A DNA stretch of 64,000 nucleotides from Poseidonia sp. (GTDB taxonomy: Archaea > Thermoplasmatota > Poseidoniia > Poseidoniales > Poseidoniaceae): contig JAUREJ010000008.1 in NCBI GenBank assembly GCA_030827475.1, forward strand, positions 95 through 64,094, read 5' to 3'. Of the stretch, positions 9,495-34,549 are shown piece after piece; position 1 is the stretch's first letter, and each line of letters starts with the position of its first letter. The position numbers and the translations under genes are program-made. The notes beneath the pieces were generated by a model that saw nothing but the letters and a program-made list of their open reading frames with translations, was not told where the DNA came from and ran no database searches.

Positions 9495-11009
9495 TCAATA
9501 ACCCAGATTTTGCTGGCCACATACCGGGCAAAACCGCCAGTACGGGTCGAGGCCAACACCGCATCCACGGCAATGAACGCCCGAATGAATGGTGGGTTGT
9601 ACCAAGGGGCGCTGAGGAGGTTGCTGCCACCCTTGTTGGGGAGGGGGTTGCTGCCATCCCTGCTGAGGTGGCGGCTGTTGCCACGCTTGTTGATTTGGTA
9701 CCGGTTGTTGGACGGGAGGTTGGTTCAACGGCGGTGGTCGTTGCTGAACCGGTTGTCCTGTGTTTTGTCCGGTGTTGCCCAACGGTCGACGAACCGGAGC
9801 CACCGGTTTGGGAAGCGAAGCCGTCTTTTCAGCGGCGGGGGAAGAGATGAATTCCGAAAGTGACACCACGCCGTCGCCATCGGTGTCCGCCTCGGCGTGC
9901 AAAGCCGCAGCTTCTTCGACGGTCGTGCCGGTGGCTCGGGCCAATTCTTCAACGTCCAAAGCCCCGCTACCATCTTCATCGGCAGCGATGAAATGTTCCG
10001 CAGCACTGACGAATTCCTCCTCATCGCCTTGCGCACCAACCTCTTCTTCCACGGGTTCAACCGAGATGTCTGGCACCTCCGGTTCAGCAGGTTGAGAATC
10101 CGGAAGAAGTTGCGAACCAAAGGCTCCGGAAAACGCATCTTGTGCTGCCCGAGCCACCTCCCGTTCGTTTTCCACGTTCACGGGAGTTTCGGCCTTCACC
10201 GGTACCTCAACCTTCGGCAGGGCCACCGTTGAGGAAGGAAGCGGCACGGGTGATTCGGGTTGAACCACCGGTGCAGAGGGTTCGGCGCCCGGAAGCGGAA
10301 CACCTTTGGGGGCGGAAGGGACAGAAGGTTCGGGAATTGGAGGAGTGGGTGCAGCCTGGACTTCAGCAGGTTCAGGGGCTTTCGGTCGTTCAAGACCTTC
10401 GGGGATTTCCACGGTCGCAGCTGAAGCGGAACCGCTGGCCAGAGAAGCGATGGGAGCGACATGTCCGGCGACGTCGAGCGCAGCGTCGAGTTCTTTGTTG
10501 ACCGTGACAAGAGCGTCCACCGACCCGCCGACATTGGCAAGCATGCCGTCAAGCGTGTTGAGGTACTTCAGCACTTCAGCGCCACCTCCTGTTTGGTGCG
10601 CCACGGCGAACAATTTCATCATCCGCATGGGGTCTGCAAGACCTTCCAACTGGGATTTTTGCTCACCGTCGAGGGAACCGATGGTCTCACCACCAGCGGC
10701 ACCGCTGGAATCGGGCATGCCGAGGCTTTGCAGGAGCGGGTCGGGCAGGCTCATCAAGCCGAGGTGACCTGCAACGAGGTAGTAGATCTCCCCGCCTTCG
10801 CACTGCATGCGTTCGCTGGCTGCTTCAAAATCAAAATCACCGGGTCGTAAAACGATGTCTGAAAGCACATCAAAAAACTGCACCATGGCTTGGTCTCGAG
10901 GCATCGCCATCATGGCATGAAGCACGTCAGAGGATTCCGTGACACCGAAATAGGCCGCGGCTTCATCCACCTCGATGGCGGTGGGATTTCCAGTGGCTCC
11001 ATCGCTCAT
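9495..11009 (-). CDS. cytosolic EF-hand pair / Pro-Gln-Trp repeat / C-terminal zinc-ribbon protein
   Basis: 504 aa with no signal peptide. Two canonical EF-hand loops, DEDGSGALDVEE and DTDGDGVVSLSE (nt 9846-10004). C-terminal CRGCG...CPVCG (nt 9519-9572). SD GGAGG lies 7 nt upstream of the ATG at 11009, 58 nt downstream of the giant adhesin gene. Confidence 0.75.
   Translation of the reverse strand: MSDGATGNPTAIEVDEAAAYFGVTESSDVLHAMMAMPRDQAMVQFFDVLSDIVLRPGDFDFEAASERMQCEGGEIYYLVAGHLGLMSLPDPLLQSLGMPDSSGAAGGETIGSLDGEQKSQLEGLADPMRMMKLFAVAHQTGGGAEVLKYLNTLDGMLANVGGSVDALVTVNKELDAALDVAGHVAPIASLASGSASAATVEIPEGLERPKAPEPAEVQAAPTPPIPEPSVPSAPKGVPLPGAEPSAPVVQPESPVPLPSSTVALPKVEVPVKAETPVNVENEREVARAAQDAFSGAFGSQLLPDSQPAEPEVPDISVEPVEEEVGAQGDEEEFVSAAEHFIAADEDGSGALDVEELARATGTTVEEAAALHAEADTDGDGVVSLSEFISSPAAEKTASLPKPVAPVRRPLGNTGQNTGQPVQQRPPPLNQPPVQQPVPNQQAWQQPPPQQGWQQPPPQQGWQQPPQRPLVQPTIHSGVHCRGCGVGLDPYWRFCPVCGQQNLGY
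9612..9692 (-). repeat. imperfect 27-nt tandem repeat x3 encoding (W)QQPPPQQG
   Basis: Protein reads QAWQQPPPQQGWQQPPPQQGWQQPPQ. The DNA shows three similar units (ggttgctgccacccttgttgggg...). Confidence 0.7.
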
Positions 11010-11067: not shown

Positions 11068-14000
11068 TCAAGCCGCCTTGTTTTTCGCAAGGTTGCAAAT
11101 CGCTCGAGACTGCTCCGCAGTCCACCCTGTTTCTTGAAGTTGCATCAGCACGCTGCGCTCTTGGTCACCGTCTGCAATTGCACCCATCACCCATTCCACG
11201 GCGGATTCTCGGTCAGCACGTTGCCAGTCCTCAAAGATGCTCAAATCAACCTGAATCTTCGCCTTTCGAACCTTCGCTGAGGAGGCCTCAACGACCGAAT
11301 TCACCGACTTTTTCTTCGCCACTTTTTGCACGGGCTCTGGTTTTGCCGACGACTCCTGATCCGGGCCGCTTTGAGGGGGGCCGCCTCCGCCACGCTTTGG
11401 CGGGCCTGCATTGGCTTTGGGAGGGCCACCCGGGCCGGCTCGTGAAGGAGAAGGACGGCTGTTGGCAGGTCCGCGGGGCTCGCCAGAGTTTGACGATGGT
11501 GCAGGGCGTGAACGAGCGGGAGCGGCCCGTTTTGCATCCAACTTATCGAGGAAACTCTCCTCATTGTCGTCGTCAAAGAATTCATCGTAGGCATCATCAT
11601 CTTCGTCATCGTCCTCACGGCCTGAGCGCAACACTACGAGAAGACCCAACAAGATGACGAGCCCGACCGCTCCACCGGCGACCATCAGCATGCCAGCATC
11701 CAATCCAAACAATCCAGCATCACCATCGCCGGAGACCGCTACGTAGGGGCAACCGTCGTCGTACCCGTCAACGCCTTTCGGATCGTTAGGGCAGTTGTCC
11801 TCATTGTCCTTGACACCGTCATAATCCGAGTCCCGTTCGGAGGGATGACACCCGTCCCCGTCCAGTTGGCCCAACAGGCCCGAAAGCGTGGTTGGGCAGA
11901 GGTCAGCGTTGGTGGCACCTTCGATAAATTCGCCGGGCCAGCTTGGGTCACGGTGTGGGGTCCACGATGCGTCACCCCAGTTGTCACCCAAGCCATCGAA
12001 ATCAGAATCTTTCCATTGCGTGGGGTTGTTTTGGAGGGTTTCCGGTTCCAAGAAGTCGGCCCAACCGTCGCCGTCATCGTAACAACCAGGGACGTCCATG
12101 AACGACGTACCTGCTTCGGCCGAGCAGAAGTCAGCGTTCTGAGCGCCTTGAATAAACACACCCGGCCATGAAGGGTCGCGAGAATTGTTCCACGACACCG
12201 TGCCCCAATTGTCCCCAAGACCATCTCCATCGGAGTCAAACCATTGGGTGGGGTCAGACGGGAAGGCATCGCCGGTTTGGTTGACATGAAGCCCCGTGAT
12301 GGGGTCAATGTCGTAACTGTATGCACCAGCAAAACCGTCGCCATCGATGTCCTCGGTCAATGCACTCTCGTCGGTGCAGCCATTTTCAAGAATCGGGAAG
12401 CCGGGTGGCGTGTCGTCACAGGCATCGTCAAGGTCCGACAACCCGTCTCCGTCGCTGTCGCGTTGGGCCTGTGAACAACCGAATTCGTCAACGCTTTCGC
12501 CCACCTCCGTGTTGGGACAACGGTCCTCGGGGTCGTTCAAGCCGTCCCCGTCCGAGTCTGAAGTTCGTTGCTCAGCGCTGCAACCATCTCCGTCGACCGT
12601 CACGCCCGTCGGCGTCTCGGAACAGAGGTCATCATTGTTCTTGACGCCGTCTTCGTCGTCGTCCAACTCGGATTGAGCGCATCCGTCCTCGTTGACCACC
12701 TCACCAGCCGGACTGTTGGGGCAGATGATATCGAGATCGTTGATCAGGCCGTCCCCGTCGTTGTCTTGAAGGTCAATGACGCGGCAACCCACACCGTTCG
12801 TTCCGTTGAAAACGCCGAATTCAAACGGACATTCATCCGCGTTTTCGCCCAGAGGGTTATCGCCAAACCCGTCCCCGTCCGTGTCAGAGGTCTGCGTTTT
12901 GTCAAGAGGGAAGGCGTCACCAATCTGATTTTCTCGCAGACCGCTGGTTTGGTTTGTCTCGTAGGCGTATTGGTCGGTGAAGCCATCGCCGTCCGAATCA
13001 AGACATCCGTAGACCGGCACCGTGGAATTGCCCCAAACTTCTGGGCACTGGTCCAATTCAAGACCTTCTTTGTACGAGGTTTTGGGGAACGTGAGGTTGG
13101 CTGCTTGGTCCTCGTCGCACCCGTTTGGACCAATCGGAAGCGAGGGGTCGGATTCAACGCACATGTCGTTGAGGTTGATGACTCCGTCGTTGTCGTCGTC
13201 CATCGTGGCAAAGGCCGTCCAATTGTCGGCATAGCCATCGCCATCCGTGTCGTTTGCCGCCACGATGCGCAGTGGGAAACGGTCGGGGAGCGTGGCGTTC
13301 TCGGATTGGTTATCACCGAAGCCGTCACCGTCGGTGTCGGTCCATTGCGTCGGGTCAAAAGGCCAAACATCAGCGCCAAGTTCGATGTTCCATTCAAAGA
13401 ACGTCCCCTCGTCTGAAGGGTCACTTGCGCCATCCCCGTCGGAGTCCAGACAACCGTTTCGGTCTCGCCACGAAGCGCCCCAGTCCCAAGGGCAGAAGTC
13501 GCCGTACACCGTATCGGTGTCGTTATCGCCAAAGCCATCCCCGTCGTAATCAGCGTATTGCGAAGCGATGTAAGGGAACAAATCTCCGGGACCGGCGTTC
13601 GGGTCCAACTCAACGGAACAACAGTCCACGCCGTGATTGTCACCAAACCCGTCACCATCGGTGTCGAGCGCTTGTTTCCAGTTACCTTTGTAGACATCGC
13701 CGTCAAAGTATGTGGCCCCGTTGTCTGACCAACCGTCCTGGTCAAGGTCCTCACAACCGTACCGGTCGATCCATGAGGTCCCTCCGGAGGAATCGCAACC
13801 GTCGATGTCATCGGAGAAGCCGTCCATGTCGAAATCCGCGCACCCGTAAACGACGTACGAGGAGGGACCGGCCGCCGAAGGGCACTGGTCGGCAAGCGGT
13901 CCCAGAGGGTTGTCACCGAAACCGTCCCCGTCGCCGTCAGACCATTGGTTTCCAACCGCAGGCATCTCGTCAACCAAGTCAAAAACAAGATCCCGGTCTT

Positions 14001-17000
14001 GGTCGGCGTAAAGTCGAAGAAGAACTGCATCGTTGTTGACTTCGTCCCAATACGCAAGGTGAACGGTCCCGTTGCTGTCAACGACCGCATCCACCGGGTG
14101 GTTGGTCACGATGTCCCCGAAGCGGACGGACATCCAGGGCGCATAACCAGCGTGAACGCCGTCGAGTTCAGCGGTGTTCACCACAAGGTGATTGGATACG
14201 GGGTCGCTGGTCAACAAGAGAAGATGGTCGCCCATGTGGAGAACATCCCAAGCCCCGTCCACCGCAGCAGCCGGTCGTTCGGTCAACGTGACCCAATCAC
14301 CGGTGCTGTTGGGAGCGAGGAGGGAGGAGACGGCGTTTGCCCGAACGGCCAAAAGCGGTTGGTCACCGCCCTCGAGGTCGAGACGGTATTCGTTGGCGGT
14401 GCCGCTGGGTTGCAGCACGGTGTGCGATTGCCAAACGGTGTCGCCTGGCCATTGCTCGTAAAGGGCGAGGGCCCCCGTTGTGCTGAGGGAAGCGAGAAGG
14501 AGAGATCCGTTGGCAAGCGTGGTGAGCCCAAGTTGGGTCCCGTGGTCGGACATGTTGCCGATGGTTTGTTTGATCAGCGTCGTGCCGTTATGCATCCAAA
14601 CCGCAAGGTTGGTGCCGGTGCCGTTGGAAGCGACCAAGGCCACGGCGAGCGTGTCGTTGGCGAGCATAACAGCAGGGTGTTGGGTGGACACCGCTTCCGC
14701 GACGGAGCCCAAGGAGGTCAGCGTCCAACTGCCTCCTCCGGTCGCCCGTTCGAGTTGTCCCGTCGAGGCATGTCGATAGACGAGGTGCGGCACATCGTTG
14801 CTGTCAAACAAGACTTCGATTCCGTTGGCGAGTTGGGCTCCCGTTCGGACCAGGTCGGTGACCCAGCCTGATGCCGTTTGCTCGCTGGCGTAGATTTGTT
14901 GACCTGAACCTGATGTGTAAGCAAGAACTTGTTCGTTGCCCTGATTCACGTTTGAGCCGATGTATTGGCCCATGGTTCCCGTCGTAGCCACGGCTTGTTC
15001 AACCGCCGTCATGGAGCGAGTGGTGTGGAGATGGATGGCATCGTCATCTTCGGTGAGGAGCAGAGGGAGGCCCGAGGATTGAACGTCAAAGCGGATGGAA
15101 AGGTTGCTTGTGGTTGATCGAACCACGGTTTGGTCCACCCATTGGCCTGCGGGTGAACCGTCCATCATGTGTTCCAATTTCGCAGCGTAGGAACGCTGAG
15201 TGTCGTTGAAGGTATAGGCGATGCTCGTTTCTCCGCGGTCTGCCGTCGCCAACTCCAACGCATTGAGTTGTCCTGCATGCTCAAAGGAAATCGATTCCCA
15301 ATCGCGTTCCGACACCACCACGTAATCGAGAGCAAAGGCGCTGCCTCGGTCATCGGTGCGTTGCGAATAGACGAGGTCGCCCAACCCGTCGCCGTTGAGG
15401 TCCCCGCCGGCCGCTAGACGGAAGCCCAGTTGCTCGCTGGAATTTCCTTCTGCAAGCAATTGTTTGTCGGAACGCAAACCGTCGGCCGAACCAAGGAAGA
15501 TTTCGATGCGGCCGGCGTTTGAACCAAGCCGGCTGGTGATGTACACATCGTCGTAACCGTCGTCGTTGATGTCGCCGGCAGCTGCGATCGCTTCACCGAT
15601 TTTCGAGTTCGCCAACGTCGGGAAGTACTGCCAGTCCGCCTCGCTCGGGAAGGCAGAAGATGTTCCATCAAACAACCACAGCACCCCCGTACCGAAGACG
15701 CCGTCGGTGTTGTTGAACGGCTCCGTGATGATGTGTTCGTCGAAGCCGTCCCCGTTGAGGTCCCCCGCACAGACGATACCGTGGCCGAACAAACGACCCT
15801 GGACCAGGGATGAAATGACATGGTCGGGCGTCCCTTGGTATCCAGCGACATCGCCGTAAAAATATTCAATGGAGGAGTAAGAGAGCGGAGATGCATACGA
15901 ACCGGTGTTTGCGACGATGAGTTCAGCAAGGCCGTCCCCGTTCAAATCGCAGCCTTCGAGCGTTCGACCAAACATCGAACCGTCGCCGGTCTGGGTGAGG
16001 TTTCGCACCAACGTAAGCCCAGTTTCGCCACCGTCGTACACGTTGACTTTCCCGGTGTGGGTGACCGATGTACTGACCTCGAGAGCGTAGCCGTGAGCAG
16101 CGCCGGCAAGCCCGTCGGCGGCAGAGTCCTGATGCAAGGTGGTGACGGTGGAACCCAAGGATTCGTTACCGGACCCGTTGATCGTCCATGAAGGTGCGGA
16201 GGGTAGACCTGCTGGCGAGCCCAAATGCACCGTGAGGCGGCCGTCATTTTGGTTGGTAGAACCGCTGAGGTCCCATCCAGGCGCCCCGATGAGAAGGTCC
16301 TCTACACCGTCGTTGTTGTAGTCACCCACGTCAACGCCTTGCCCATAGTGCTCTCCATCCCCGCTTCCCGCAAGAATGGTGCTCGGCACGGCCTCCAATC
16401 CTGCCGAGGAACCGTAGTACACTTCGACACGACCGTTATCGGTGAACCCCACCATGTCTGCGGTGGGGGTGCTGATGAGGAGGTCATCAAACCCGTCGCC
16501 GTTGAAATCGGCCATGGCGATGCTGCCTTCCGCTTCGTCTGCCGTACCTTCACGATGGTCGGTGGGAACGGGGTCGACACGCCCAGTGTCTTGACCGGCA
16601 AGCGAACGAATGAGGTTGATCGAGAAGGTGGAGCCGATTTGGGTGGCTGTAGCGATTTGCTCAATGGCATTTGCGTCGAGATCCATCCCCAGGGCGTCGA
16701 CGAGGGCTGCGTTTCGGTCGAGGATGCTCACGTCGTGCTCACCGTCAGCAATGCGGAGCAAGACCACTTCGTTTGCGGTTGACCGGCTGTAGAGGATGTG
16801 AGCGGTGCCGTTGGCGTCCAACGCCAACTCAAAGTCTTCACCGACAGGACCGGCATCGAGCAGGAAGGTGGTCCAGTAAGCGCCGCTGAAGTTGACCTGA
16901 TGAAGCGCACCGTCCGCAGTCCGCACCAAGCCCCATTCAACCCCGTTTGGCGTGATTTCGAGCTCAATGTGCGTTGGCGAAATGTCTTCAAGAATCGTCC

Positions 17001-17574
17001 GAGTATGCCATGTTGGCCCTTCCCAGTACACTTGGCTCGTCCTTGCAAAACGGCCCACCTTGAGGTCGTCCCCGTCGGCGTAGAGGACACGCGGGAGTTC
17101 GTTGGCCGTAACGGCGATAGCACAATCCACAAGAGCGGAGGTGTTGGCGGAAGCGACGGTGTCGACAAGCGTCGTGCTCCAAAACCCGTTGGGGCGATGA
17201 ATCGCCGTCCGGACCGCTCCCTGCTCGGTCGACCAGCAGTAATGTTCCTTGTCCGTGCGCGTCAGTTTCATGTCGGGTGTCCCGTGATGTTCCGTGCTCG
17301 AGTTGTTCAGCTCCGTTGAAATCCAGTAGTCAAACATGGATTCCTCCCGAACAACAGCATTGTCCAAACCGTCAACGCTGATGGCCGTTCCTGCAAATTC
17401 ATGACTTGAGCCCTCGGTCAACGAGAACGCAGCGTTAAGACGAACGTCCGGATGGGGGGCAAGTTCCTCCATCGTTGCCGCAGGAGGGGCCAGAGGTGTT
17501 GCGAGAGAGCAGAGGAACAGAAGGACGAGAAGGACGCTTTTTGGATCTGAATTTTGATTCGTGGCGTCCGACAT
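11068..17574 (-). CDS. giant type-I surface protein (FG-GAP beta-propeller + thrombospondin type-3 Ca-binding repeats + C-terminal TM + 186-aa cytoplasmic tail)
   Basis: Continuous 2179-codon ORF. Signal-like segment KSVLLVLLFLCSLATPLAPPAA, seven FG-GAP repeats, >15 DxDxDGxxDxxD repeats, TM AGMLMVAGGAVGLVILLGLLVVL followed by RSGREDDDEDDD. Start ATG 17574 is preferred because an AT-rich box lies ~30 nt upstream. ATG 17607 is an alternative. Confidence 0.85.
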   Translation of the reverse strand: MSDATNQNSDPKSVLLVLLFLCSLATPLAPPAATMEELAPHPDVRLNAAFSLTEGSSHEFAGTAISVDGLDNAVVREESMFDYWISTELNNSSTEHHGTPDMKLTRTDKEHYCWSTEQGAVRTAIHRPNGFWSTTLVDTVASANTSALVDCAIAVTANELPRVLYADGDDLKVGRFARTSQVYWEGPTWHTRTILEDISPTHIELEITPNGVEWGLVRTADGALHQVNFSGAYWTTFLLDAGPVGEDFELALDANGTAHILYSRSTANEVVLLRIADGEHDVSILDRNAALVDALGMDLDANAIEQIATATQIGSTFSINLIRSLAGQDTGRVDPVPTDHREGTADEAEGSIAMADFNGDGFDDLLISTPTADMVGFTDNGRVEVYYGSSAGLEAVPSTILAGSGDGEHYGQGVDVGDYNNDGVEDLLIGAPGWDLSGSTNQNDGRLTVHLGSPAGLPSAPSWTINGSGNESLGSTVTTLHQDSAADGLAGAAHGYALEVSTSVTHTGKVNVYDGGETGLTLVRNLTQTGDGSMFGRTLEGCDLNGDGLAELIVANTGSYASPLSYSSIEYFYGDVAGYQGTPDHVISSLVQGRLFGHGIVCAGDLNGDGFDEHIITEPFNNTDGVFGTGVLWLFDGTSSAFPSEADWQYFPTLANSKIGEAIAAAGDINDDGYDDVYITSRLGSNAGRIEIFLGSADGLRSDKQLLAEGNSSEQLGFRLAAGGDLNGDGLGDLVYSQRTDDRGSAFALDYVVVSERDWESISFEHAGQLNALELATADRGETSIAYTFNDTQRSYAAKLEHMMDGSPAGQWVDQTVVRSTTSNLSIRFDVQSSGLPLLLTEDDDAIHLHTTRSMTAVEQAVATTGTMGQYIGSNVNQGNEQVLAYTSGSGQQIYASEQTASGWVTDLVRTGAQLANGIEVLFDSNDVPHLVYRHASTGQLERATGGGSWTLTSLGSVAEAVSTQHPAVMLANDTLAVALVASNGTGTNLAVWMHNGTTLIKQTIGNMSDHGTQLGLTTLANGSLLLASLSTTGALALYEQWPGDTVWQSHTVLQPSGTANEYRLDLEGGDQPLLAVRANAVSSLLAPNSTGDWVTLTERPAAAVDGAWDVLHMGDHLLLLTSDPVSNHLVVNTAELDGVHAGYAPWMSVRFGDIVTNHPVDAVVDSNGTVHLAYWDEVNNDAVLLRLYADQDRDLVFDLVDEMPAVGNQWSDGDGDGFGDNPLGPLADQCPSAAGPSSYVVYGCADFDMDGFSDDIDGCDSSGGTSWIDRYGCEDLDQDGWSDNGATYFDGDVYKGNWKQALDTDGDGFGDNHGVDCCSVELDPNAGPGDLFPYIASQYADYDGDGFGDNDTDTVYGDFCPWDWGASWRDRNGCLDSDGDGASDPSDEGTFFEWNIELGADVWPFDPTQWTDTDGDGFGDNQSENATLPDRFPLRIVAANDTDGDGYADNWTAFATMDDDNDGVINLNDMCVESDPSLPIGPNGCDEDQAANLTFPKTSYKEGLELDQCPEVWGNSTVPVYGCLDSDGDGFTDQYAYETNQTSGLRENQIGDAFPLDKTQTSDTDGDGFGDNPLGENADECPFEFGVFNGTNGVGCRVIDLQDNDGDGLINDLDIICPNSPAGEVVNEDGCAQSELDDDEDGVKNNDDLCSETPTGVTVDGDGCSAEQRTSDSDGDGLNDPEDRCPNTEVGESVDEFGCSQAQRDSDGDGLSDLDDACDDTPPGFPILENGCTDESALTEDIDGDGFAGAYSYDIDPITGLHVNQTGDAFPSDPTQWFDSDGDGLGDNWGTVSWNNSRDPSWPGVFIQGAQNADFCSAEAGTSFMDVPGCYDDGDGWADFLEPETLQNNPTQWKDSDFDGLGDNWGDASWTPHRDPSWPGEFIEGATNADLCPTTLSGLLGQLDGDGCHPSERDSDYDGVKDNEDNCPNDPKGVDGYDDGCPYVAVSGDGDAGLFGLDAGMLMVAGGAVGLVILLGLLVVLRSGREDDDEDDDAYDEFFDDDNEESFLDKLDAKRAAPARSRPAPSSNSGEPRGPANSRPSPSRAGPGGPPKANAGPPKRGGGGPPQSGPDQESSAKPEPVQKVAKKKSVNSVVEASSAKVRKAKIQVDLSIFEDWQRADRESAVEWVMGAIADGDQERSVLMQLQETGWTAEQSRAICNLAKNKAA
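11728..13950 (-). repeat. thrombospondin type-3-like calcium-binding repeat region (protein-level repeats)
   Basis: Approx. aa 1220-1960 of the ORF. Repeated DSDGDGLNDPEDRCP, DNDGDGLINDLDIICP, DTDGDGFGDN, often paired with Cys. Confidence 0.75.
15298..16545 (-). repeat. seven FG-GAP/integrin-alpha-like repeats (protein-level)
   Basis: Approx. aa 355-770 of the ORF. ADFNGDGFDDLLIS, GDYNNDGVEDLLIGAPG, CDLNGDGLAELIVA, GDLNGDGFDEHIIT, GDINDDGYDDVYIT, GDLNGDGLGDLVYS. Confidence 0.7.
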
Positions 17575-17622
17575 GTCCCCTTCACATCCTCCGTCCTTGA
17601 AAATCATTGTTCACCGCGGCCT

Positions 17623-17641: not shown

Positions 17642-17697
17642 GCCAATCGACCACTCGAACCGTTGAGTTGAGAAGGAAGGTCCGCCAACCCCCATGC

Positions 17698-18336
17698 ATG
17701 GCCGAGCGCATATGGGTCATCCTCACGGGAGGGGAATGGTGCCCTTTGCACCGTTTGGAGCCTTGGCTTGGCCTCGCCACCTCGGTCGTTGCCTGCGACG
17801 GGGCCTTGAACCTCGCACAAGAACGGGGTGTCCAAGTGAATGTCGTCATGGGCGACATGGACAGCGTGGGTGCTGAGGAGTTGAAAACCCATATCAAGAA
17901 GGGAGGCGAGGTTCAGAAACTCAGTGGACAAAACGACAACGACCTTGCAAAAGCCCTGAGACAGGCTGCTGCAAATGACGTCGAAAGATGCGTGGTGGTT
18001 GGAGCCACCGGCGGGGACCTTCACCATGCTTGGGCCAACCTCTTGGAATGCAGTCGAGCTCCGATGGAGGTGGATTGTCTCGGCCCTCTTGAGGTTCACC
18101 GGTTCATCAAACCGTCCAAGAAGACCTCTATAGAAATTGAACTTGGGTCGGTTTTTTCCATCTTTACGCTGAGCGAAGCACGCGGTGTTTTCCTCCACGG
18201 TGCTGAATGGGAACTGAACGGGACCACCCTCGGGGCAAGTTCCCGTGGACTCCACAATCGAGCGACTGAAACCTCGATCGAAATCGAATTTGAAGCAGGG
18301 CAACTCTTCGTTTTACACGGCTACTTTGACGACTGA
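17698..18336 (+). CDS. thiamine pyrophosphokinase
   Basis: 212 aa from ATG 17698 (the track start at 17668 is TTG). MAERIWVILTGGEW, VACDGA, the GDMDS motif, and a C-terminal beta-sandwich-like half. TTGAGAAGG box at 17668. Confidence 0.8.
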   Translation: MAERIWVILTGGEWCPLHRLEPWLGLATSVVACDGALNLAQERGVQVNVVMGDMDSVGAEELKTHIKKGGEVQKLSGQNDNDLAKALRQAAANDVERCVVVGATGGDLHHAWANLLECSRAPMEVDCLGPLEVHRFIKPSKKTSIEIELGSVFSIFTLSEARGVFLHGAEWELNGTTLGASSRGLHNRATETSIEIEFEAGQLFVLHGYFDD

Positions 18337-19184
18337 GGAAGAAAAGAGCGGAGCATGGCGGAATAATCGCTTTGTCCGTCCCACTCCTGCGCCCTTTCGT
18401 CGATGCGGGCCGCTTCAAGCGTCTGCTCAAATCCACCCCAATCTTCGATCAATTTCAGCCTGTAGGCCGCTTTTGGGGTGTACCCGGGAAGGAAATTTCG
18501 CCAAATGAAAGGAATGCGTCCCGGCGTGACTTGATTCACGATTCGAACGATGGAAGTGTTGCACGTCGTCAACAAGGAGTGGTACCACTCTGGTGATTGA
18601 GCGAGTTGATTCAGTTTTCCAATCAACCCCAGCAACAAAGCCTTGTCCTTCCCTGGCGGCGTGATGGCTCGAAACATGTAATCCTTGTTTTTCCGACCAT
18701 GAGTTCGCAGTCCTGTTACGTCGCGTTCAAAGCCCACGAGCAGGTAGAGTTCGTAAGCTCGCCACATGCCGTCCCAAGGGTGGTATCGCTCGCCTTTTTC
18801 TCGTCGTGTCTCGAACGAGAAGGAGAGGCTCGTGCCGTCCTCAAAATCAAACGTCAAATAGGTGTGCGCCAAACCTTTGAGGGCGTGAAAATGGTCGACG
18901 ACGAACCAGATATCCTTGAGTTCATCCAACTTGACCTTGACCTCAGGCGCCCAATTCTCGTCGCGGTCACGGGTGGTGCGCCAGGTGAAATCACGCACCA
19001 TGTGAAAGGTGATGTCGTTGCCGTCGACGGTAGCGGTGGTCAAGTGCTCGCAATCAGCAGCCCACTCAAGGTCAAGCGATGGCTGCAACGGACGGATTCG
19101 AGTTCGCCAAACATAGAGGAGCCGTAAGCCGATTACTCCCCCAAAAAAGGCCACTGCGAGGCCGATTATTTCCAGCGGCGTCAT
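18321..19184 (-). CDS. membrane-anchored DUF4105-like protein
   Basis: 287 aa from ATG 19184, which forms an ATGA overlap with the stop of the upstream gene. N-terminal TM LEIIGLAVAFFGGVIGLRLLYVW followed by RTRIR. The body resembles DUF4105 (..VVDHFHALKGLAHTYLTFDF...RAYELYLLVG..). Confidence 0.65.
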   Translation of the reverse strand: MTPLEIIGLAVAFFGGVIGLRLLYVWRTRIRPLQPSLDLEWAADCEHLTTATVDGNDITFHMVRDFTWRTTRDRDENWAPEVKVKLDELKDIWFVVDHFHALKGLAHTYLTFDFEDGTSLSFSFETRREKGERYHPWDGMWRAYELYLLVGFERDVTGLRTHGRKNKDYMFRAITPPGKDKALLLGLIGKLNQLAQSPEWYHSLLTTCNTSIVRIVNQVTPGRIPFIWRNFLPGYTPKAAYRLKLIEDWGGFEQTLEAARIDERAQEWDGQSDYSAMLRSFLPQSSK

Positions 19185-20485
19185 TGTTCCCACCCGTGCC
19201 AAATCTGCCAGTCCGCATCCCACCAATCCAGTTTTCCATCCGGGTGCTGGCGCCACATGACGCCCTGGTCGTCGGTGATGACAGGAAGGCCCATCGGGTC
19301 AGGACGGCCGTCCGCAAGCACCTGAGGAGCAGGACCGAGATGGGGTATATCGAGGGGTTCGACACGACGCTTCCCCGTGAAAGCAAGGAAGACGAAAACC
19401 GTGACGACGAGCGCCAGAAGGCCGATGGAGAGCCAACCCACGGATTCAGTAGGCGTGTTCTCACCAAGCGAGGTGGAGGGGGCGGTCGCCGTCTCGTCCT
19501 CACCTGCGTTTGGATTTGGAAGTCGAATCAGATTCACGCCCGCCGTTGAGGAGATCATCTTCTCGTTCATCACCTCGAGGCTGATAAGGTACGCCCCGGC
19601 CGGAAGTTCAGAGCAATCCAAAGACGAGGTGTTTGCGCCTTCGACCAGCTTTCCTTTGATTCGCCAGTTCTTGGTCCACATCGCCGAAGCTGACGCATCT
19701 TCGGTGACCATCTTCACCTTGCACGGCAAGTTCGTGGTGTTCTCATGGCCGAGCAAGGTTAACGTGAATTGAGGGGCAGGGCGGTTTGTGATGGTGAAGT
19801 TGAGGTTGGCTTCGGTCGTCTGACCCAATCCGTTCCGGTAAGTTTCACGCAATGCGTATGTGCCGGCTGGCCAAGATGAACAATCCAGCGTACCGTGGGC
19901 ATCCAGCACGCTGAAGGGCGCTCCTGAAAAGGTCCGAACGCCCGTCTCTCCGTACCTTGGCCCGGTCTCATCGGAGAAAACGCGTGTGACCTGACAGGCT
20001 TCTCCTGTCTGAATCGATGGCCCTGCCTCAAGATTGAGTTGGACCATCGGCACTTGAAGTGCTGGCGTCAAAACAAAGGTTGGAAGTGGGTTGGACGCGA
20101 TGAATTCCCCGTCATCGTCAAAGAAATCCAGCCGCAAACGGTGCTCGCCCTTGGACCAAGCATCGTAGACCAGAGAAAGGTTTGTTTGACCGGAAAAAGA
20201 AATTTCGGCCACCTCGAGCACCTCACGCTCCTTGTGAAGGCCCCGTAGTTTGACGATGAGGTCGTTCTGGGCTGAGGTTGAATTGAGCACAACCACCACC
20301 CGAACGGCATCGATATCACCGTCCTGGTCGGTGTCAATGGTGTCGTTGCGCAGCGCCAACACGGTCAATCCCTGCTCCGCAAGGCGTTCTTCGGTGGTCA
20401 GTTCAGCGGCAACCACCGTCAAGGGGCTCAGCAGGGTGAGCATGAACACCACGGCGGCGCCCCATGCCAGGGTCTTCTCACGCAT
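19181..20485 (-). CDS. type-I surface protein with Ig/PKD-like domains and Trp-rich WW-like cytoplasmic tail
   Basis: 434 aa from ATG 20485, with SD GGAGGTG at 20498-20492 and 6-nt spacing. The track start 20494 is GTG. Signal peptide MREKTLAWGAAVVFMLTLLSPLTVVAAE, TM WLSIGLLALVVTVFVFLAFTG then KRR, tail ...GVMWRQHPDGKLDWWDADWQIWHGWEQ. Overlaps the upstream gene by 8 nt. Confidence 0.75.
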   Translation of the reverse strand: MREKTLAWGAAVVFMLTLLSPLTVVAAELTTEERLAEQGLTVLALRNDTIDTDQDGDIDAVRVVVVLNSTSAQNDLIVKLRGLHKEREVLEVAEISFSGQTNLSLVYDAWSKGEHRLRLDFFDDDGEFIASNPLPTFVLTPALQVPMVQLNLEAGPSIQTGEACQVTRVFSDETGPRYGETGVRTFSGAPFSVLDAHGTLDCSSWPAGTYALRETYRNGLGQTTEANLNFTITNRPAPQFTLTLLGHENTTNLPCKVKMVTEDASASAMWTKNWRIKGKLVEGANTSSLDCSELPAGAYLISLEVMNEKMISSTAGVNLIRLPNPNAGEDETATAPSTSLGENTPTESVGWLSIGLLALVVTVFVFLAFTGKRRVEPLDIPHLGPAPQVLADGRPDPMGLPVITDDQGVMWRQHPDGKLDWWDADWQIWHGWEQ

Positions 20486-23000
20486 CGCCTTCACCTCCGG
20501 GTGGTGTCAAGAGCGGTAGAGGAGGCAACGCATCGATGGGAATCAATTGAGGTACGGGCTGAGAGATCTCTGGCGACATCATCAATTCAAGGTCTTTGGC
20601 CGCCACGATTTGCTCCAAATACGCCGCCCGTTGCCGTGCGCCTCGCACGAGAAGAGCGCCAAGTGCGCCGAGCAAGAAACCGGTGCCGATAACGGCGTAG
20701 GTGAGCCAGGACGCTGCCGGGTCCTCGCCCATGATGGCGATAGCGGCGGCGAACTCACCGTACTGATTTGACCAGCCGTCGCCGTTGTCGTCGGGACACC
20801 CTTGAACGTCCCGTTTTGAGGTGCCCGCTTCGTTGGGGCAATCGTCGCGGAACGCCCCGAGCGGTAAGTCACCAAAGCCGTCTTGGTCGGAATCCTTCCA
20901 CTGCAGGGCTTCGGTTGGAAACGCATCTGCACTTCCAAAGGGGTGGGCTGGCCAGGAGGGGGTGGGGTCGGACCAGCCGTCGCCGTCCGTATCTCGGCAT
21001 CCAAGCCGGTCGAGCAGGGATGTCCCTCGGGTCTCCGGGCAGGCATCTCCTTGGTGACCCGTTTGCCGGTCGCCGTAACCGTCACCGTCGGAATCCCGCC
21101 ATTGAGTCGGCTCGTGAATGAAGGCATCTCCGAGGTCGGACCAACCATCGCCGTCCGTGTCCTTGCAGCCCCATCGGTCGCCACCTGAGGACGGACCAAC
21201 AGAGGTTCCGGCGACCTCTGGACAAACGTCTGCGGTCGTACCTCTCGGGTTGTCGCCTCGACCGTCACCGTCAGCGTCGTGCCATTGTGTAGGGTCTTGA
21301 GGCCAAGCATCACCTGAACCGCCCGGACTTGCCAGCCACGCTGCGGTCGGGTCCGACCATCCATCGCCATCGCCATCAGGGCATCCCCACCGGTCAAAGG
21401 TCGAATTTCCAAAGGTGGTGCGACAACCGTCGGGACGGGAAGAGGCCCGCCAGGTTTGCCCGTCGAAGTATTCCGTGTTGTCGCCGAAGCCATCGTCATC
21501 CGTATCGTGCCATTGCGAGGCGTCCTCAGGGAAGGCATCGGCAAAACCAGCCGGATGCGATGCCCACAAGGCGGTCGGGTCGGAGTAACCGTCGCTGTCG
21601 ATGTCGCGGCATCCCAACCGGTCAAAACGGCTGATCCACCCTGAATCGACTTCTTCAGGCGTGGATTCGGGGCACACATCGCCTTCAAAACCCGTCAAAT
21701 TGTCCCCGTAACCGTCCCCATCGGAATCTCTGAATTGCGAGGGAACAAAGGGGAAATCATCGATTTGGGTCGCACCGTAGGTCTGGTTGTCCCCCCAGCC
21801 GTCCCGATCCGTATCACGCCACTGCGTCGGATTAAAGGGAAAGTCATCGATGCGTTGTGCTCCCTGGGTTTGGTTATCACCCCAGCCGTCGCGGTCGCTG
21901 TCCAGCCACTGTGTAGGTTCGAGTGGAAAAGCATCCGAGCCGTTGTCTTGGGTCCAGTTTTCATCGCCGTCGGAATACGCATCGCCGTCGGAGTCAGGAC
22001 AGCCGAAACGGTCAGCAAAGGAACCCCCTCGAACGAACGGACATGCGTCCGGTTCAGTAGCGTTGTCGACGAAAATGCCGATGTCCCAAAGGTACCTCGT
22101 GATGTTCAGCGAGGCATCAGCCCAATTGTCCCCGTAACCGTCCTCATCGGTGTCGTTCCATTGGGTCACGTCGCTGGCAAAGGCGTCAGCCTTGCCCACG
22201 GGGTGGGCGTACCATGGGATGAATCCGTTCAAGCCTCCGGGGTCTGGGTCGGAATATCCGTCACCGTCCGAATCGATGCACCCAAAGCGGTCGGCCAACG
22301 AATAGCCTCGGCTGTAGGTGCAATGGTCGCCTTGGAAGCCATCGATGTTATCGCCGTAGCCGTCGTTGTCGGAATCCAACCATTGGGTGGCTTCGTTGGC
22401 AAAGGCATCTGCACCGTTCTGCACCCCCCATCCGCTGTCAGGGTCCGACCAGCCGTCACCGTCGTTATCGGTGCAGCCTTTTCGGTCGTTTGTGGAGGTG
22501 CCCACGAGGTTGACGCAGTCGTCCTCGGTGTCGATGAACCCGTCTTCGTCGGTGTCGCGGTTGGTCTTGTCGATGCTTGGCGTGAGCGTGTAATCAAAAC
22601 CGTCGTTGCACCAAGAGTCCCCGCCTTCCACCTTGAGCAAAATTTCCCCAGCGGTTGCAAGAGTCGTTGAAAGAGATGCTGTCGGATTGGTATCGTCAAC
22701 GTTGGATGTGATGGAGCCCATGGTGAAGGTCCCGATCCATCCATCGCCCGGGCACCACCAAGCAGCGTTGTTCATGCTCCCGGAGAACGAAACACGAACG
22801 ATGTCGCCTTTCTTCCCCTGAATTTTCCAATAGTCGGTTTTGTCGGTGGGTGAACAACCGTCGGGGTCACAGACGTACCCGCTGGAGGAGACGCCGTCGG
22901 TCAGCCCGTTCGCACTGGTTGGAGAATTGTCAGCAGCCACCGTGGGGAGGTGACTGAAAAAAAGCGCCGCAAGGAAAGCCACCAAGACGGTGCGACGCAT
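20478..23000 (-). CDS. secreted PPC-domain + TSP3-like Ca-binding repeat protein with C-terminal TM anchor
   Basis: 840 aa. Signal MRRTVLVAFLAALFFSHLPTVAA. N-terminal PPC-like domain (DKTDYWKIQGKKGDIVRVSFSG...LKVEGG...YTLT). About 12 units of D.DGDG(W/Y)SDP...ADAFP.(D/E).TQW.D.D.DG.GDN. TM TYAVIGTGFLLGALGALLV. Confidence 0.8.
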   Translation of the reverse strand: MRRTVLVAFLAALFFSHLPTVAADNSPTSANGLTDGVSSSGYVCDPDGCSPTDKTDYWKIQGKKGDIVRVSFSGSMNNAAWWCPGDGWIGTFTMGSITSNVDDTNPTASLSTTLATAGEILLKVEGGDSWCNDGFDYTLTPSIDKTNRDTDEDGFIDTEDDCVNLVGTSTNDRKGCTDNDGDGWSDPDSGWGVQNGADAFANEATQWLDSDNDGYGDNIDGFQGDHCTYSRGYSLADRFGCIDSDGDGYSDPDPGGLNGFIPWYAHPVGKADAFASDVTQWNDTDEDGYGDNWADASLNITRYLWDIGIFVDNATEPDACPFVRGGSFADRFGCPDSDGDAYSDGDENWTQDNGSDAFPLEPTQWLDSDRDGWGDNQTQGAQRIDDFPFNPTQWRDTDRDGWGDNQTYGATQIDDFPFVPSQFRDSDGDGYGDNLTGFEGDVCPESTPEEVDSGWISRFDRLGCRDIDSDGYSDPTALWASHPAGFADAFPEDASQWHDTDDDGFGDNTEYFDGQTWRASSRPDGCRTTFGNSTFDRWGCPDGDGDGWSDPTAAWLASPGGSGDAWPQDPTQWHDADGDGRGDNPRGTTADVCPEVAGTSVGPSSGGDRWGCKDTDGDGWSDLGDAFIHEPTQWRDSDGDGYGDRQTGHQGDACPETRGTSLLDRLGCRDTDGDGWSDPTPSWPAHPFGSADAFPTEALQWKDSDQDGFGDLPLGAFRDDCPNEAGTSKRDVQGCPDDNGDGWSNQYGEFAAAIAIMGEDPAASWLTYAVIGTGFLLGALGALLVRGARQRAAYLEQIVAAKDLELMMSPEISQPVPQLIPIDALPPLPLLTPPGGEGDA

Positions 23001-23018
23001 GAGCGCTGATGGGTCAAA

Positions 23019-23032
23019 GGATTATCAAAACC
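23019..23032 (-). promoter_or_regulatory. TATA-like box GGTTTTGATAATCC for the 840-aa gene
   Basis: Minus-strand TTTTGATAA starts 30 nt upstream of the ATG at 23000. It separates this three-gene unit from the upstream photolyase unit. Confidence 0.5.
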
Positions 23033-33067: not shown

Positions 33068-34549
33068 TCAGTCGTCAAGCAGTGGAATCAAGGTTCCAAA
33101 ATCTTCGTAGAGACTGGGGCCGCTGGCCAAGTAGTAGACCGAACCCCGACCGTCCCGAGAGTCTTGAGCGGTCGCGTTCTCGTTGGTTGCGCACTCACCG
33201 GTGCAGCCGTCGGCAAAAGCGACGTAAACGCGCCCTTCGCGATCGATGTGGAGGTCGTTGAAATCCAAGAGGTTGCGGTTCGATCCTCCGATGTCTCGAC
33301 AATCCCCCGAGTTCAAACAAATCGAGCCGACTTGGACGGGGTCATCGGTAACCCGGTAGGTGTGGAAGATGGGATTCTCGTCGAGTGCGTTGAGGCTGTA
33401 GGTGATGTAGAGATGGTAGCTGGCGTTGTTCGGTGCGTAGTGAGCGTTCCCGTTCCAAGGGTTCCCGTCGATGTCGGATTGGTTGAGCATCTCGTCGTTC
33501 TCGCTCCCGAGGTAGGTGATGGCGATGCGTCCTGCGTCGCCAGCATCGGTTTGTGGGAACACCGAAGAAATCACGTTCACGGGAGAAATGCGGATGCTTT
33601 CTTGGTCCCAGGTTTCCCCGGAATCAAAGGAACGTGACATGTAGACGCCTTCGTCACCTCCCGTCCATACATGGTAAGCATTGGAATCCGAATCAGCGGA
33701 GACCTCCGAATTCTTTCGAGGGTTGGGCGTGCCCGTGTCCTCGCCCATGGTCCGCTCAAACCACGAAAAGCCGTTGTCCTTTGAGACGATGACCGTGGGG
33801 GTGGCGACACGTGGTGTCACGTAAACGGTCCCGTCAGGAGCGGTTGAAATGGCACCGTGCAAACCACCGTTCGTGGTGGCGAGGCCGATGATTTGACCGC
33901 CGAGTTCAAACGTTGCACCACCATCAACGCTCGTAAAACAGAAGATGCCAGCCAACTTGTTGTAGCAATAATACACGGCGGTTTCGTAAAAGTTGCTCGT
34001 GATTTGACCCAATGCTCCGTAGCCGCTGTCCGTCCAAGGCCCGCTCGCCAATTTGATGTGATCGTTGAGAGGCGTGGTGCCCGAATCGTGCGGGTTCCCC
34101 ATCCAGGATTCGCCGTCATCGTCGCTCCAGCAGATCCACGAAGTTTCCAGACCGATCATCTGGACCCCGAAGACACGGTCAGTGATCGGGTCCACCCATC
34201 CGTAGGGGTCACTGGTCGTCGGCGAACAGGCCACGGGGTCTTGGCTCTCCTCCCACGATGCACCGTAATCGCACGAACGCATGACCTTCTCCATGGCGAT
34301 GAAGAAGATGCAACCGCTGGAGGTGATGCCGATGCTCGGTTCCTTGCCGGTCTCACCCACGTCGCTGAACTGGAAGGTCATGGGCTCGATGTCCATGTCG
34401 AGAAGTTGCCCGGTTTTGTCCGTGACAAACATGCGCCGGTCGTCGTCGTCCTCCACCAAGGGCGGTGCAACCGTTTCTTCCTCACCGATGCACCCGGAGA
34501 GGGACATGGTGACCACCAACAACGAAAGCAGCCAAGCGTTGACTTTCAT
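33068..34549 (-). CDS. secreted BNR/Asp-box repeat (sialidase-like beta-propeller) protein, lipobox-like signal
   Basis: 493 aa. Signal MKVNAWLLSLLVVTMSLSGC. Asp-boxes SCDYGASWEE, SDDDGESWMG, TSVDGGATFE, SKDNGFSWFE, SFDSGETWDQ. Confidence 0.75.
   Translation of the reverse strand: MKVNAWLLSLLVVTMSLSGCIGEEETVAPPLVEDDDDRRMFVTDKTGQLLDMDIEPMTFQFSDVGETGKEPSIGITSSGCIFFIAMEKVMRSCDYGASWEESQDPVACSPTTSDPYGWVDPITDRVFGVQMIGLETSWICWSDDDGESWMGNPHDSGTTPLNDHIKLASGPWTDSGYGALGQITSNFYETAVYYCYNKLAGIFCFTSVDGGATFELGGQIIGLATTNGGLHGAISTAPDGTVYVTPRVATPTVIVSKDNGFSWFERTMGEDTGTPNPRKNSEVSADSDSNAYHVWTGGDEGVYMSRSFDSGETWDQESIRISPVNVISSVFPQTDAGDAGRIAITYLGSENDEMLNQSDIDGNPWNGNAHYAPNNASYHLYITYSLNALDENPIFHTYRVTDDPVQVGSICLNSGDCRDIGGSNRNLLDFNDLHIDREGRVYVAFADGCTGECATNENATAQDSRDGRGSVYYLASGPSLYEDFGTLIPLLDD

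Follow-up and report, generated by a model that had tools for sequence, protein, structure and literature searches.

A conserved Poseidoniaceae operon joins two predicted surface proteins to a separable Lnb_N-family enzyme

What do three genes make together when each of the later two begins on the end of the one before it? The question is raised by a locus in a 64,000-nucleotide stretch of DNA from Poseidonia sp. (GenBank assembly GCA_030827475.1, contig JAUREJ010000008.1), which we call the window and whose positions are used throughout. Three genes of its minus strand, here g1, g2 and g3 in order of transcription, follow one another with overlaps at both junctions. An earlier note on this DNA described them as a translationally coupled surface module and proposed that their products form a stoichiometric complex; the open reading frames and both overlaps, re-read in the sequence, are as it described them. 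We conclude, with a probability of roughly 60%, that the locus is a conserved operon in which g1 and g2 encode a surface pair, probably in contact through their tails, and g3 encodes a separable acyl enzyme of the Lnb_N family at the membrane. The genes and their expression signals are as follows.

Positions 20478-23000, minus strand: g1, 840 amino acids (aa).
Positions 19181-20485, minus strand: g2, 434 aa.
Positions 18321-19184, minus strand: g3, 287 aa.
Positions 23019-23032 (core TTTTGATAAT at 23022-23031), minus strand: TATA-like promoter box, centred about 26-27 nt before the g1 ATG.
Positions 20492-20498, minus strand: Shine-Dalgarno (SD) sequence of g2, GGAGGTG, 6 nt before the g2 ATG and inside the g1 codons for a conserved C-terminal Gly-Gly-Glu.

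The g2 ATG (20485) lies inside g1, the two genes overlapping by 8 nt, and the g3 ATG falls on the g2 TGA to give the junction ATGA. A leaderless first gene followed by internal genes led by SD motifs is the standard archaeal pattern, and each of its components is found here: the distance of the TATA box, the lack of an SD before g1, the internal SDs, the overlaps and the conservation of all of these. Conservation was followed in 80 species-level genome loci retrieved with g3 as anchor and in 80 metagenome loci retrieved with g2. Across about 60 distinct orthologous upstream regions the box, as TTTTGATAATCC, stands at a constant −31 to −20 from the g1 ATG whilst its flanks vary; in more distant clades it reads TTCATAGG or TTGATAGG at the same fixed position. 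No SD was found ahead of the g1 ATG, either in the window or in the orthologous upstream regions, as would be expected of a leaderless first gene. Of 74 distinct junctions, 71 have an SD-type motif (GGAGGTGA or a close variant of it) ahead of the g2 ATG, and an SD-like AGGTGGGA, carried by the last codons of g2, stands before the g3 ATG in an equal number (71/74). In the 79 loci anchored on g3 in which the trio is present, the spacing between g1 and g2 has a median of −8 nt, with an overlap in 62, and that between g2 and g3 a median of 0 nt. The Gly-Gly-Glu is always present in the otherwise variable C-terminus of g1 and, since the SD of g2 is embedded in its codons, may be regarded as the protein-level shadow of that SD. 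Junctions and promoter box are kept in about 75-80 Poseidoniaceae species-level loci, and this conservation across species makes the operon features more than chance. The trio is, as judged from these sequences, a conserved Poseidoniaceae operon under one leaderless-type promoter. The promoter box, the g2 start 8 nt inside g1 with its embedded GGAGGTG and the ATGA start of g3 had all been pointed out in the earlier note, and the comparison across loci bears out each of them.

Some further observations concern the edges of these genes. Many orthologous loci carry a short, perfect inverted repeat (CACCCCGTAGGGGTG or GACACCCTACGGGTGTC) immediately before the TATA-like box, at about −50 to −33 from the g1 ATG in L001, L020, L042 and others and at about −65 to −48 in L055-L087; the corresponding site in this window (GCAGGGGAGG) is not palindromic. 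The repeat could be a terminator of the upstream gene or the site of a regulator. Longer GTG starts, at 19256 for g3 and at 20494 for g2, were considered and discarded; in locus L001 an in-frame stop directly precedes the g3 ATG. In three gene calls (P0095, P0254 and P0260) g3 is extended upstream by a 'WIGG..FGTGG' peptide (window 19181-19256). We rejected this as a real N-terminus of g3, as it is the conserved Trp-rich tail of g2 read in another frame and hence an annotation artefact.

Is the trio, then, a single module? In the g2-anchored loci g3 directly follows g2 wherever there is room downstream (75/75) and g1 directly precedes g2 wherever there is room upstream (67/67), and the trio is syntenic through the Poseidoniaceae, down to about 50% g2 identity. 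Outside these loci g3 keeps other company. In L049, L051 and L052 a g3 that is 75-78% identical directly follows the epimerase gene, with no g1-g2 at the locus; a neighbour-joining tree places these three nested inside trio-bearing clades, which suggests secondary loss of g1-g2. A distant Poseidoniales lineage (L006-8; g3 44% identical; 1.9-Mb contig) keeps the same frame genes, with g1-g2 replaced by a 955-aa MMPL transporter and two tandem Lnb_N genes (L006 7051-11789). In the L089/90 lineage (52% identical; L089 7604-11505) the gene before Lnb_N encodes a 781-aa PF09826 beta-propeller that bears a lipobox (LIMSLSGC), and in L089 a 197-aa two-helix membrane protein comes after Lnb_N. The genes for g3, thiamine pyrophosphokinase (TPK) and a 2179-aa FG-GAP protein stay together in trio, g3-only and MMPL loci, whereas the L089/90 locus has neither TPK nor the FG-GAP protein. 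Bacterial relatives adjoin MMPL, acyltransferase and fatty-acid-oxidation genes, as on contig L094 (6001-11917), where Lnb_N sits beside an MMPL/RND-type transporter, TP_0789/LolA-like and fatty-acid oxidation genes; lipid-metabolism contexts have also been described in the literature (PMC12994826). These neighbourhoods indicate that g3 is the constant, separable element and that g1-g2 is an accessory pair, specific to Poseidoniaceae and always found together. The earlier expectation that the trio would be syntenic in relatives is correct through the Poseidoniaceae but does not extend to the lineages just listed.

The same evidence bears on the obligate membrane complex of the earlier note, in which the Trp-rich tail of g2 would dock on a cytoplasmic g3 body. 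Such a complex would account for the tight coupling kept in so many loci and for the fact that g2 is never seen without g3, and the charge bias described below puts the body of g3 together with the tails of g1 and g2 on one side of the membrane. However, g3 is far more conserved than g2 (77-100% against 51-94% identity in the listed clusters), and the family is widespread in bacteria that have neither g1 nor g2. Because g3 is also kept after the loss of g1-g2 in three nested lineages, and stands elsewhere behind an MMPL transporter or a lipobox beta-propeller, an obligate stoichiometric three-protein complex appears unlikely, and the docking model built on it very improbable. What survives of the proposal is that g2 is never without g1 or g3.

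At the opposite extreme, the arrangement could be inherited synteny and nothing else, a g1-g2 adhesin cassette having been inserted upstream of an unrelated housekeeping g3 and having captured its expression signals with no functional tie. The block g3-TPK-FG-GAP-EF-hand-NicX is syntenic even where g1-g2 is absent or replaced, and the upstream boundary of g1 is variable, being formed by Epimerase/DUF1731 in some loci and by glycosyltransferases in others (in the window it is an Epimerase/DUF1731 gene, whose stop lies 62 nt before the g1 start). Yet the start/stop overlaps and embedded SDs have been kept over large divergence, no rearrangement separates g2 from g3 in the 75 g2-anchored loci, and in three other contexts g3 stands at 50-80 nt behind a large exported or membrane protein. 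We regard synteny without function as somewhat unlikely, and return below to what it means for our own reading.

The family to which g3 belongs is identified by sequence. It matches Pfam PF13387 (Lnb_N, formerly DUF4105) at E 8.6e-20, with 71.5 bits against a cut-off of 22.2, residues 76-232 aligning to model positions 3-173 of 175, so that the earlier assignment to DUF4105 is correct; in NCBIfam no model matches g1, g2 or g3. An exhaustive HMMER search (E<=1e-3) retrieved 2010 relatives of g3, mostly of 270-400 aa and 28-45% identity. These cover residues 32-280, which means that the whole body, beyond the Pfam core, is the family unit. The top 120 matches of a g3-family profile search are from Poseidoniales only. 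In an alignment of 149 sequences R64, H107, D155, Y201 and C208 do not vary at all, and conservation exceeds 90% at E125, R127, E153 and R160. The earlier remark that no function is known for DUF4105 is out of date: in Lnb, a lipoprotein N-acyltransferase of Bacteroides published in 2024, this domain is the catalytic one, with the triad Asn66-His49-Cys148, of which Cys148 is essential (PMC11573676), and it has been placed in the permuted NlpC/P60 (LRAT-like) group, as a sister clade of the lipid-targeting type VI secretion system toxin Tox-Act1 (PMC12994826).

For g3 itself we used an AlphaFold2 (AF2) model built on the 149-sequence alignment, with a predicted local distance difference test score (pLDDT) of 96 and a predicted template modelling score of 0.91; a model built on 14 close homologues had a pLDDT of 54 and was discarded. 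It consists of a helix at residues 3-30, a beta-rich N-terminal part and, after residue 232, soluble helices that form a C-terminal extension of about 55 aa. The residues at its predicted catalytic centre are encoded as follows.

Positions 18864-18866, minus strand: codon of His107, the predicted catalytic His, on strand 106-114 of the model, with Glu125 on the next strand.
Positions 18561-18563, minus strand: codon of Cys208, the predicted nucleophile, at the N-terminus of helix 208-219 of the model.

A His on a strand that precedes a Cys at the start of a helix gives g3 a permuted papain-like order, and features of the permuted NlpC/P60 (LRAT-like) group are present, with His before Cys, Cys at the helix N-terminus and both residues conserved. 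Sequence and model together place g3, anchored by a single helix, in the Lnb_N/DUF4105 clade of permuted NlpC/P60 (LRAT-like) enzymes. In Foldseek searches with the model, the best meaningful PDB match is Aichivirus 2A (H-box/NC; prob 0.44, TM(target) 0.5), and BFVD returns picornavirus and kobuvirus polyproteins (E 0.019, prob 0.85), neither being significant. The only recurring structural neighbours are thus picornavirus 2A H-box/NC proteins, which are LRAT/PLAAT-like. Searching PDB sequences with a profile of the g3 family gave no match. A defence or toxin role of the Tox-Act1 kind was considered and dropped, as g3 is a conserved core gene without nearby secretion or immunity genes.

On which side of the membrane would such an enzyme work? 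By hydropathy g3 has a single N-terminal transmembrane helix (aa ~4-26), followed by W-R-T-R-I-R-P. Taking the mean number of Lys and Arg in the 15 residues before and the 15 after the anchor helix as a measure of charge bias, we found 0.28 before and 3.67 after in 18 Poseidoniales-type g3 sequences, against 2.35 and 2.11 in 54 other one-helix relatives. Three helices precede the domain in another 42 relatives, and lipobox-like signals occur in about 14. Bacterial relatives with N-in, three-helix or lipobox anchors are clearly exported, with the catalytic domain outside the cytoplasm. For L001 an N-terminal extension of g3 that might alter the picture is excluded by the in-frame stop mentioned above. 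The body of g3 is near neutral (−2.6), in contrast to the strongly acidic ectodomains of g1 (charge −118) and g2 (−25), and this agrees weakly with a location away from the surface. The density of N-glycosylation sequons was also tried as an indicator of topology and set aside, as it does not discriminate (1.71x for the cytoplasmic epimerase, 1.69x for g1). The clade-specific charge bias leads us to lean, by a little, towards a cytoplasmic body; homology with the exported bacterial relatives favours a body outside. The earlier note had applied the positive-inside rule to this one protein. The inverted bias proves to be clade-wide and to contrast with the bacterial relatives, whilst the cytoplasmic placement stays a prediction.

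If the body did face outward, g3 could be the archaeal counterpart of Lnb, N-acylating lipobox lipoproteins or modifying exported proteins or outer-leaflet lipids, the products of the genes upstream among them. The anchors of the bacterial relatives argue for this, and a lipobox protein gene lies directly upstream of Lnb_N in L089. The genome of this archaeon itself encodes clear lipobox proteins: one in the window, of 493 aa (33068-34549, minus strand), has a textbook lipobox signal, MKVNAWLLSLLVVTMSLSGC (MSLSGC), together with weak BNR/Sortilin-type beta-propeller matches. Its presence implies that the archaeon makes lipobox lipoproteins, which would make an Lnb-like role possible for an outward-facing g3. 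N-terminal modification of the Cys of an archaeal lipoprotein has been reported, and the paper that describes it names no enzyme (PMC12462473). But the charge bias is inverted throughout the Poseidoniales clade, and the near-neutral body is weak evidence in the same direction; moreover g3 is missing the four C-terminal transmembrane helices of Lnb, and neither g1 nor g2 has a lipobox Cys. We consider an outward-facing g3 of this kind unlikely.

Both upstream genes are predicted to encode type-I surface membrane proteins. The product of g1 would be very acidic, with thrombospondin-type-3-like (TSP3-like) Ca-binding repeats: hydropathy gives a signal-like segment (aa 1-24) and one C-terminal transmembrane helix (aa ~763-787), which leaves a cytoplasmic tail of 53 aa. 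A Cys-containing N-terminal domain (aa 25-145) is followed at aa 149-745 by 16 matches to the Ca-binding-type motif D-x-D-x-DG-x-x-D, in two alternating types, and the protein has 20 Cys, mostly in C-x13-C pairs. The signal peptide, Ca-type repeats and membrane anchor described in the earlier note are all recovered, with 16 motif matches in place of about 12 units. Its PPC domain is not, as PF04151 matches neither the full protein nor residues 24-147 alone at E up to 10, there is no Pfam match to TSP_3 (PF02412) even at E 10, and no family is matched above its threshold. There is a weak resemblance (E 0.008) to the TSP3-repeat OmpA-like protein 5wtl, and the g1 repeats have a paralogous counterpart in the C-terminal half of the FG-GAP protein next to it. 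That neighbour (11068-17607, minus strand) carries the same DxDGDG / PTQWxDxDGDGxGDN units in its C-terminal half, then a transmembrane helix and a long cytoplasmic tail, acidic at first and then Pro/Gly-rich.

The g2 product, with beta-sandwich-like ectodomains, has a signal-like N-terminus and one C-terminal transmembrane helix (aa ~349-371), followed by a cytoplasmic tail of 63 aa. Its N-terminal domain has an invariant DxDQDGDxDA, and two beta-sandwich-like domains follow, each with an invariant Cys pair (164/202 and 255/291) and related to each other as an internal repeat at E 1e-4. Homologues are found in Poseidoniales only, at 51-94% identity. Pfam matches all lie below the gathering score (Por_Secre_tail, E 0.003; TcfC E-set, E 0.0058; K319L-like PKD, E 0.011). 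Of the earlier description, the signal peptide, the membrane helix and the Trp-rich tail hold good and the Ig/PKD likeness is sub-threshold (E 0.003-0.011), but the supposed relation of the tail to WW domains does not hold: 14 tails gave no Pfam WW match (PF00397) at E up to 10, and hhalign against seven WW domains gave a probability of 0.5%. Against PDB sequences the nearest match to the tail is the choline-binding repeats of LytA, which at E 0.7 is not significant. The two cytoplasmic tails each contain one conserved motif.

Positions 20514-20528, minus strand: LPPLP core of the g1 tail motif, conserved as IPL[DE]xLPP[LI]P.
Positions 19190-19273, minus strand: Trp-rich C-terminal motif of g2, DDxGxxWRxHPxGxxDWWDxxWxxWxxW, nearly invariant.

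The g1 motif is a new lead of this analysis. It is conserved in about 70 distinct g1 cytoplasmic tails amid highly variable sequence, and LPP[LIV]P has a single match in the window in any frame, the g1 tail; the Trp-rich motif of g2 and IPLxxLPPLP are both unique within the window.

From these elements a mechanism can be proposed. A leaderless-type promoter would drive g1, and g2 and g3 would be translated from the SDs embedded in the gene before them. The g1 and g2 proteins probably pair through their cytoplasmic tails, IPLxxLPPLP of g1 with the Trp-rich motif of g2. In g3, Cys208, activated by His107 and Glu125, most likely forms an acyl-thioester, and the enzyme, working at the membrane surface near its anchor helix, would then transfer or hydrolyse an acyl chain carried by a membrane lipid or a lipoprotein. 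The target of g3 may be whichever membrane or surface protein the upstream gene encodes, or lipids that this protein handles. An acyl donor is plausible, given that fatty-acid and PlsC-like genes and mixed membranes, the latter not proven, have been proposed for Poseidoniales (PMC6962369, PMC6461757). The charge bias also invites a bolder version, which we think decidedly unlikely: a bacterial periplasm-facing Lnb_N enzyme, having lost its positive N-tail and gained R-x-R-x-R after the helix, would have been re-oriented to the cytoplasmic face as a PLAAT/LRAT-like acyl enzyme, and would there remodel or transfer acyl chains, either in the inner leaflet or on the cytoplasmic tails of membrane proteins encoded upstream (g1/g2, or MMPL).

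Several points tell against our preferred reading of an operon with a surface pair and a separable membrane acyl enzyme. Synteny in these genomes extends to the entire neighbourhood (TPK, the FG-GAP giant, the EF-hand protein and NicX), and adjacency alone is then no proof of a functional link between g1-g2 and g3. The contact between the g1 and g2 tails is pure conjecture. Foldseek with the g3 model against the PDB gave nothing at E<=0.001 (best E 0.2), and so no significant solved NlpC/P60 neighbour, for which reason the basis of the NlpC/P60 assignment is the Pfam match, together with the literature and the order of secondary structure in the model. One of the Arg residues after the g3 helix belongs to a family-wide R-P-S-x-D-R-x-W that is present also in exported bacterial lipoproteins, which weakens the positive-inside argument. 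Finally, archaeal ether lipids offer no acyl ester as substrate unless the Poseidoniales make mixed lipids.

The genes that flank the operon on its downstream side add some detail. That for TPK (17668-18336, plus strand) is convergent with g3, the two 3′ ends sharing 16 nt (18321-18336); in L001 this overlap is 71 nt. Beyond the FG-GAP gene, a 504-aa protein (9495-11009, minus strand) has EF-hand pairs, a Pro-rich stretch (APTPPIPEPSVP) and a C-terminal zinc ribbon, and belongs, in trio loci, to the conserved block that follows the FG-GAP gene. In L006-8 a 367-aa gene without a Pfam match replaces it.

Marine Group II, to which the Poseidoniaceae belong, supplies the most abundant archaea in the surface ocean, all uncultured. 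To our knowledge, the Lnb_N family has so far been characterised in bacteria only. Genomes of the group suggest a mixed archaeal and bacterial membrane chemistry (PMC6962369, PMC6461757). In g3 we have a strongly conserved gene, with intact predicted catalytic residues, at a fixed locus in every Poseidoniales lineage examined here, and therewith a clonable handle on the use of acyl chains at the Poseidoniales membrane and on the side at which it occurs. Were g3 to face outward, it would be a candidate for the still-missing enzyme that modifies archaeal lipoprotein N-termini (PMC12462473). Were the re-orientation true, this gene, nearly universal in Poseidoniales, would be direct genetic evidence for the handling of ester-linked acyl lipids in Marine Group II, with a bearing on the mixed-membrane question, and g3 would be the first acyl-transfer enzyme tied to the biogenesis of archaeal surface proteins. 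The g1-g2 pair, for its part, is a defined, putatively Ca-dependent surface unit of two proteins among the loosely annotated "thrombospondin" adhesion genes of Poseidoniales. The interest of the locus lies in this pair and in an architecturally distinct archaeal Lnb_N enzyme with a clade-wide inverted charge bias.

How does the locus compare with systems already known? Thrombospondin-type genes are known to be widespread in Poseidoniales (Rinke et al., PMC6461757). With these TSP3-repeat adhesion genes, and with 5wtl, g1 has in common its repeated DxDxDGxxD Ca-binding motifs and paired Cys, and its repeat type is also that of the 2179-aa FG-GAP neighbour, which matches TSP_3 weakly. It differs from them in falling under all Pfam thresholds, in its type-I anchor, in the PPLP-type motif of its cytoplasmic tail and in having a dedicated partner, g2.

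As to g3, the toxins Tox-Act1 and TseH and the LRAT-PLAAT enzymes share with it the permuted order, with His on a strand before a helix-start Cys, and are associated with lipid-directed chemistry (PMC12994826). They differ from it in that none gives a significant sequence or Foldseek match, and in the anchor helix, which in g3 is N-terminal and not C-terminal; nor does g3 sit in a secretion or conflict system. PLAAT/LRAT enzymes have a single-helix anchor and a cytosolic catalytic domain, and this is the architecture that g3 would have if its body is cytoplasmic. Lnb, of 398 aa and with five transmembrane helices, its DUF4105 domain lying between TM1 and a bundle of C-terminal helices, is built differently from g3, which has 287 aa, a single hydrophobic segment (residues 6-24) in its one N-terminal helix and, at the C-terminus, an extension of soluble helices. 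In architecture g3 is not an Lnb orthologue. It is also archaeal, its charge bias predicts the opposite orientation, and its third catalytic residue would be Glu where Lnb has Asn. What the two proteins share is the Pfam domain, a membrane anchor beside the catalytic domain and a closely similar spacing of the His, polar and Cys residues, H49/N66/C148 in Lnb (+17, +99) and H107/E125/C208 in g3 (+18, +101).

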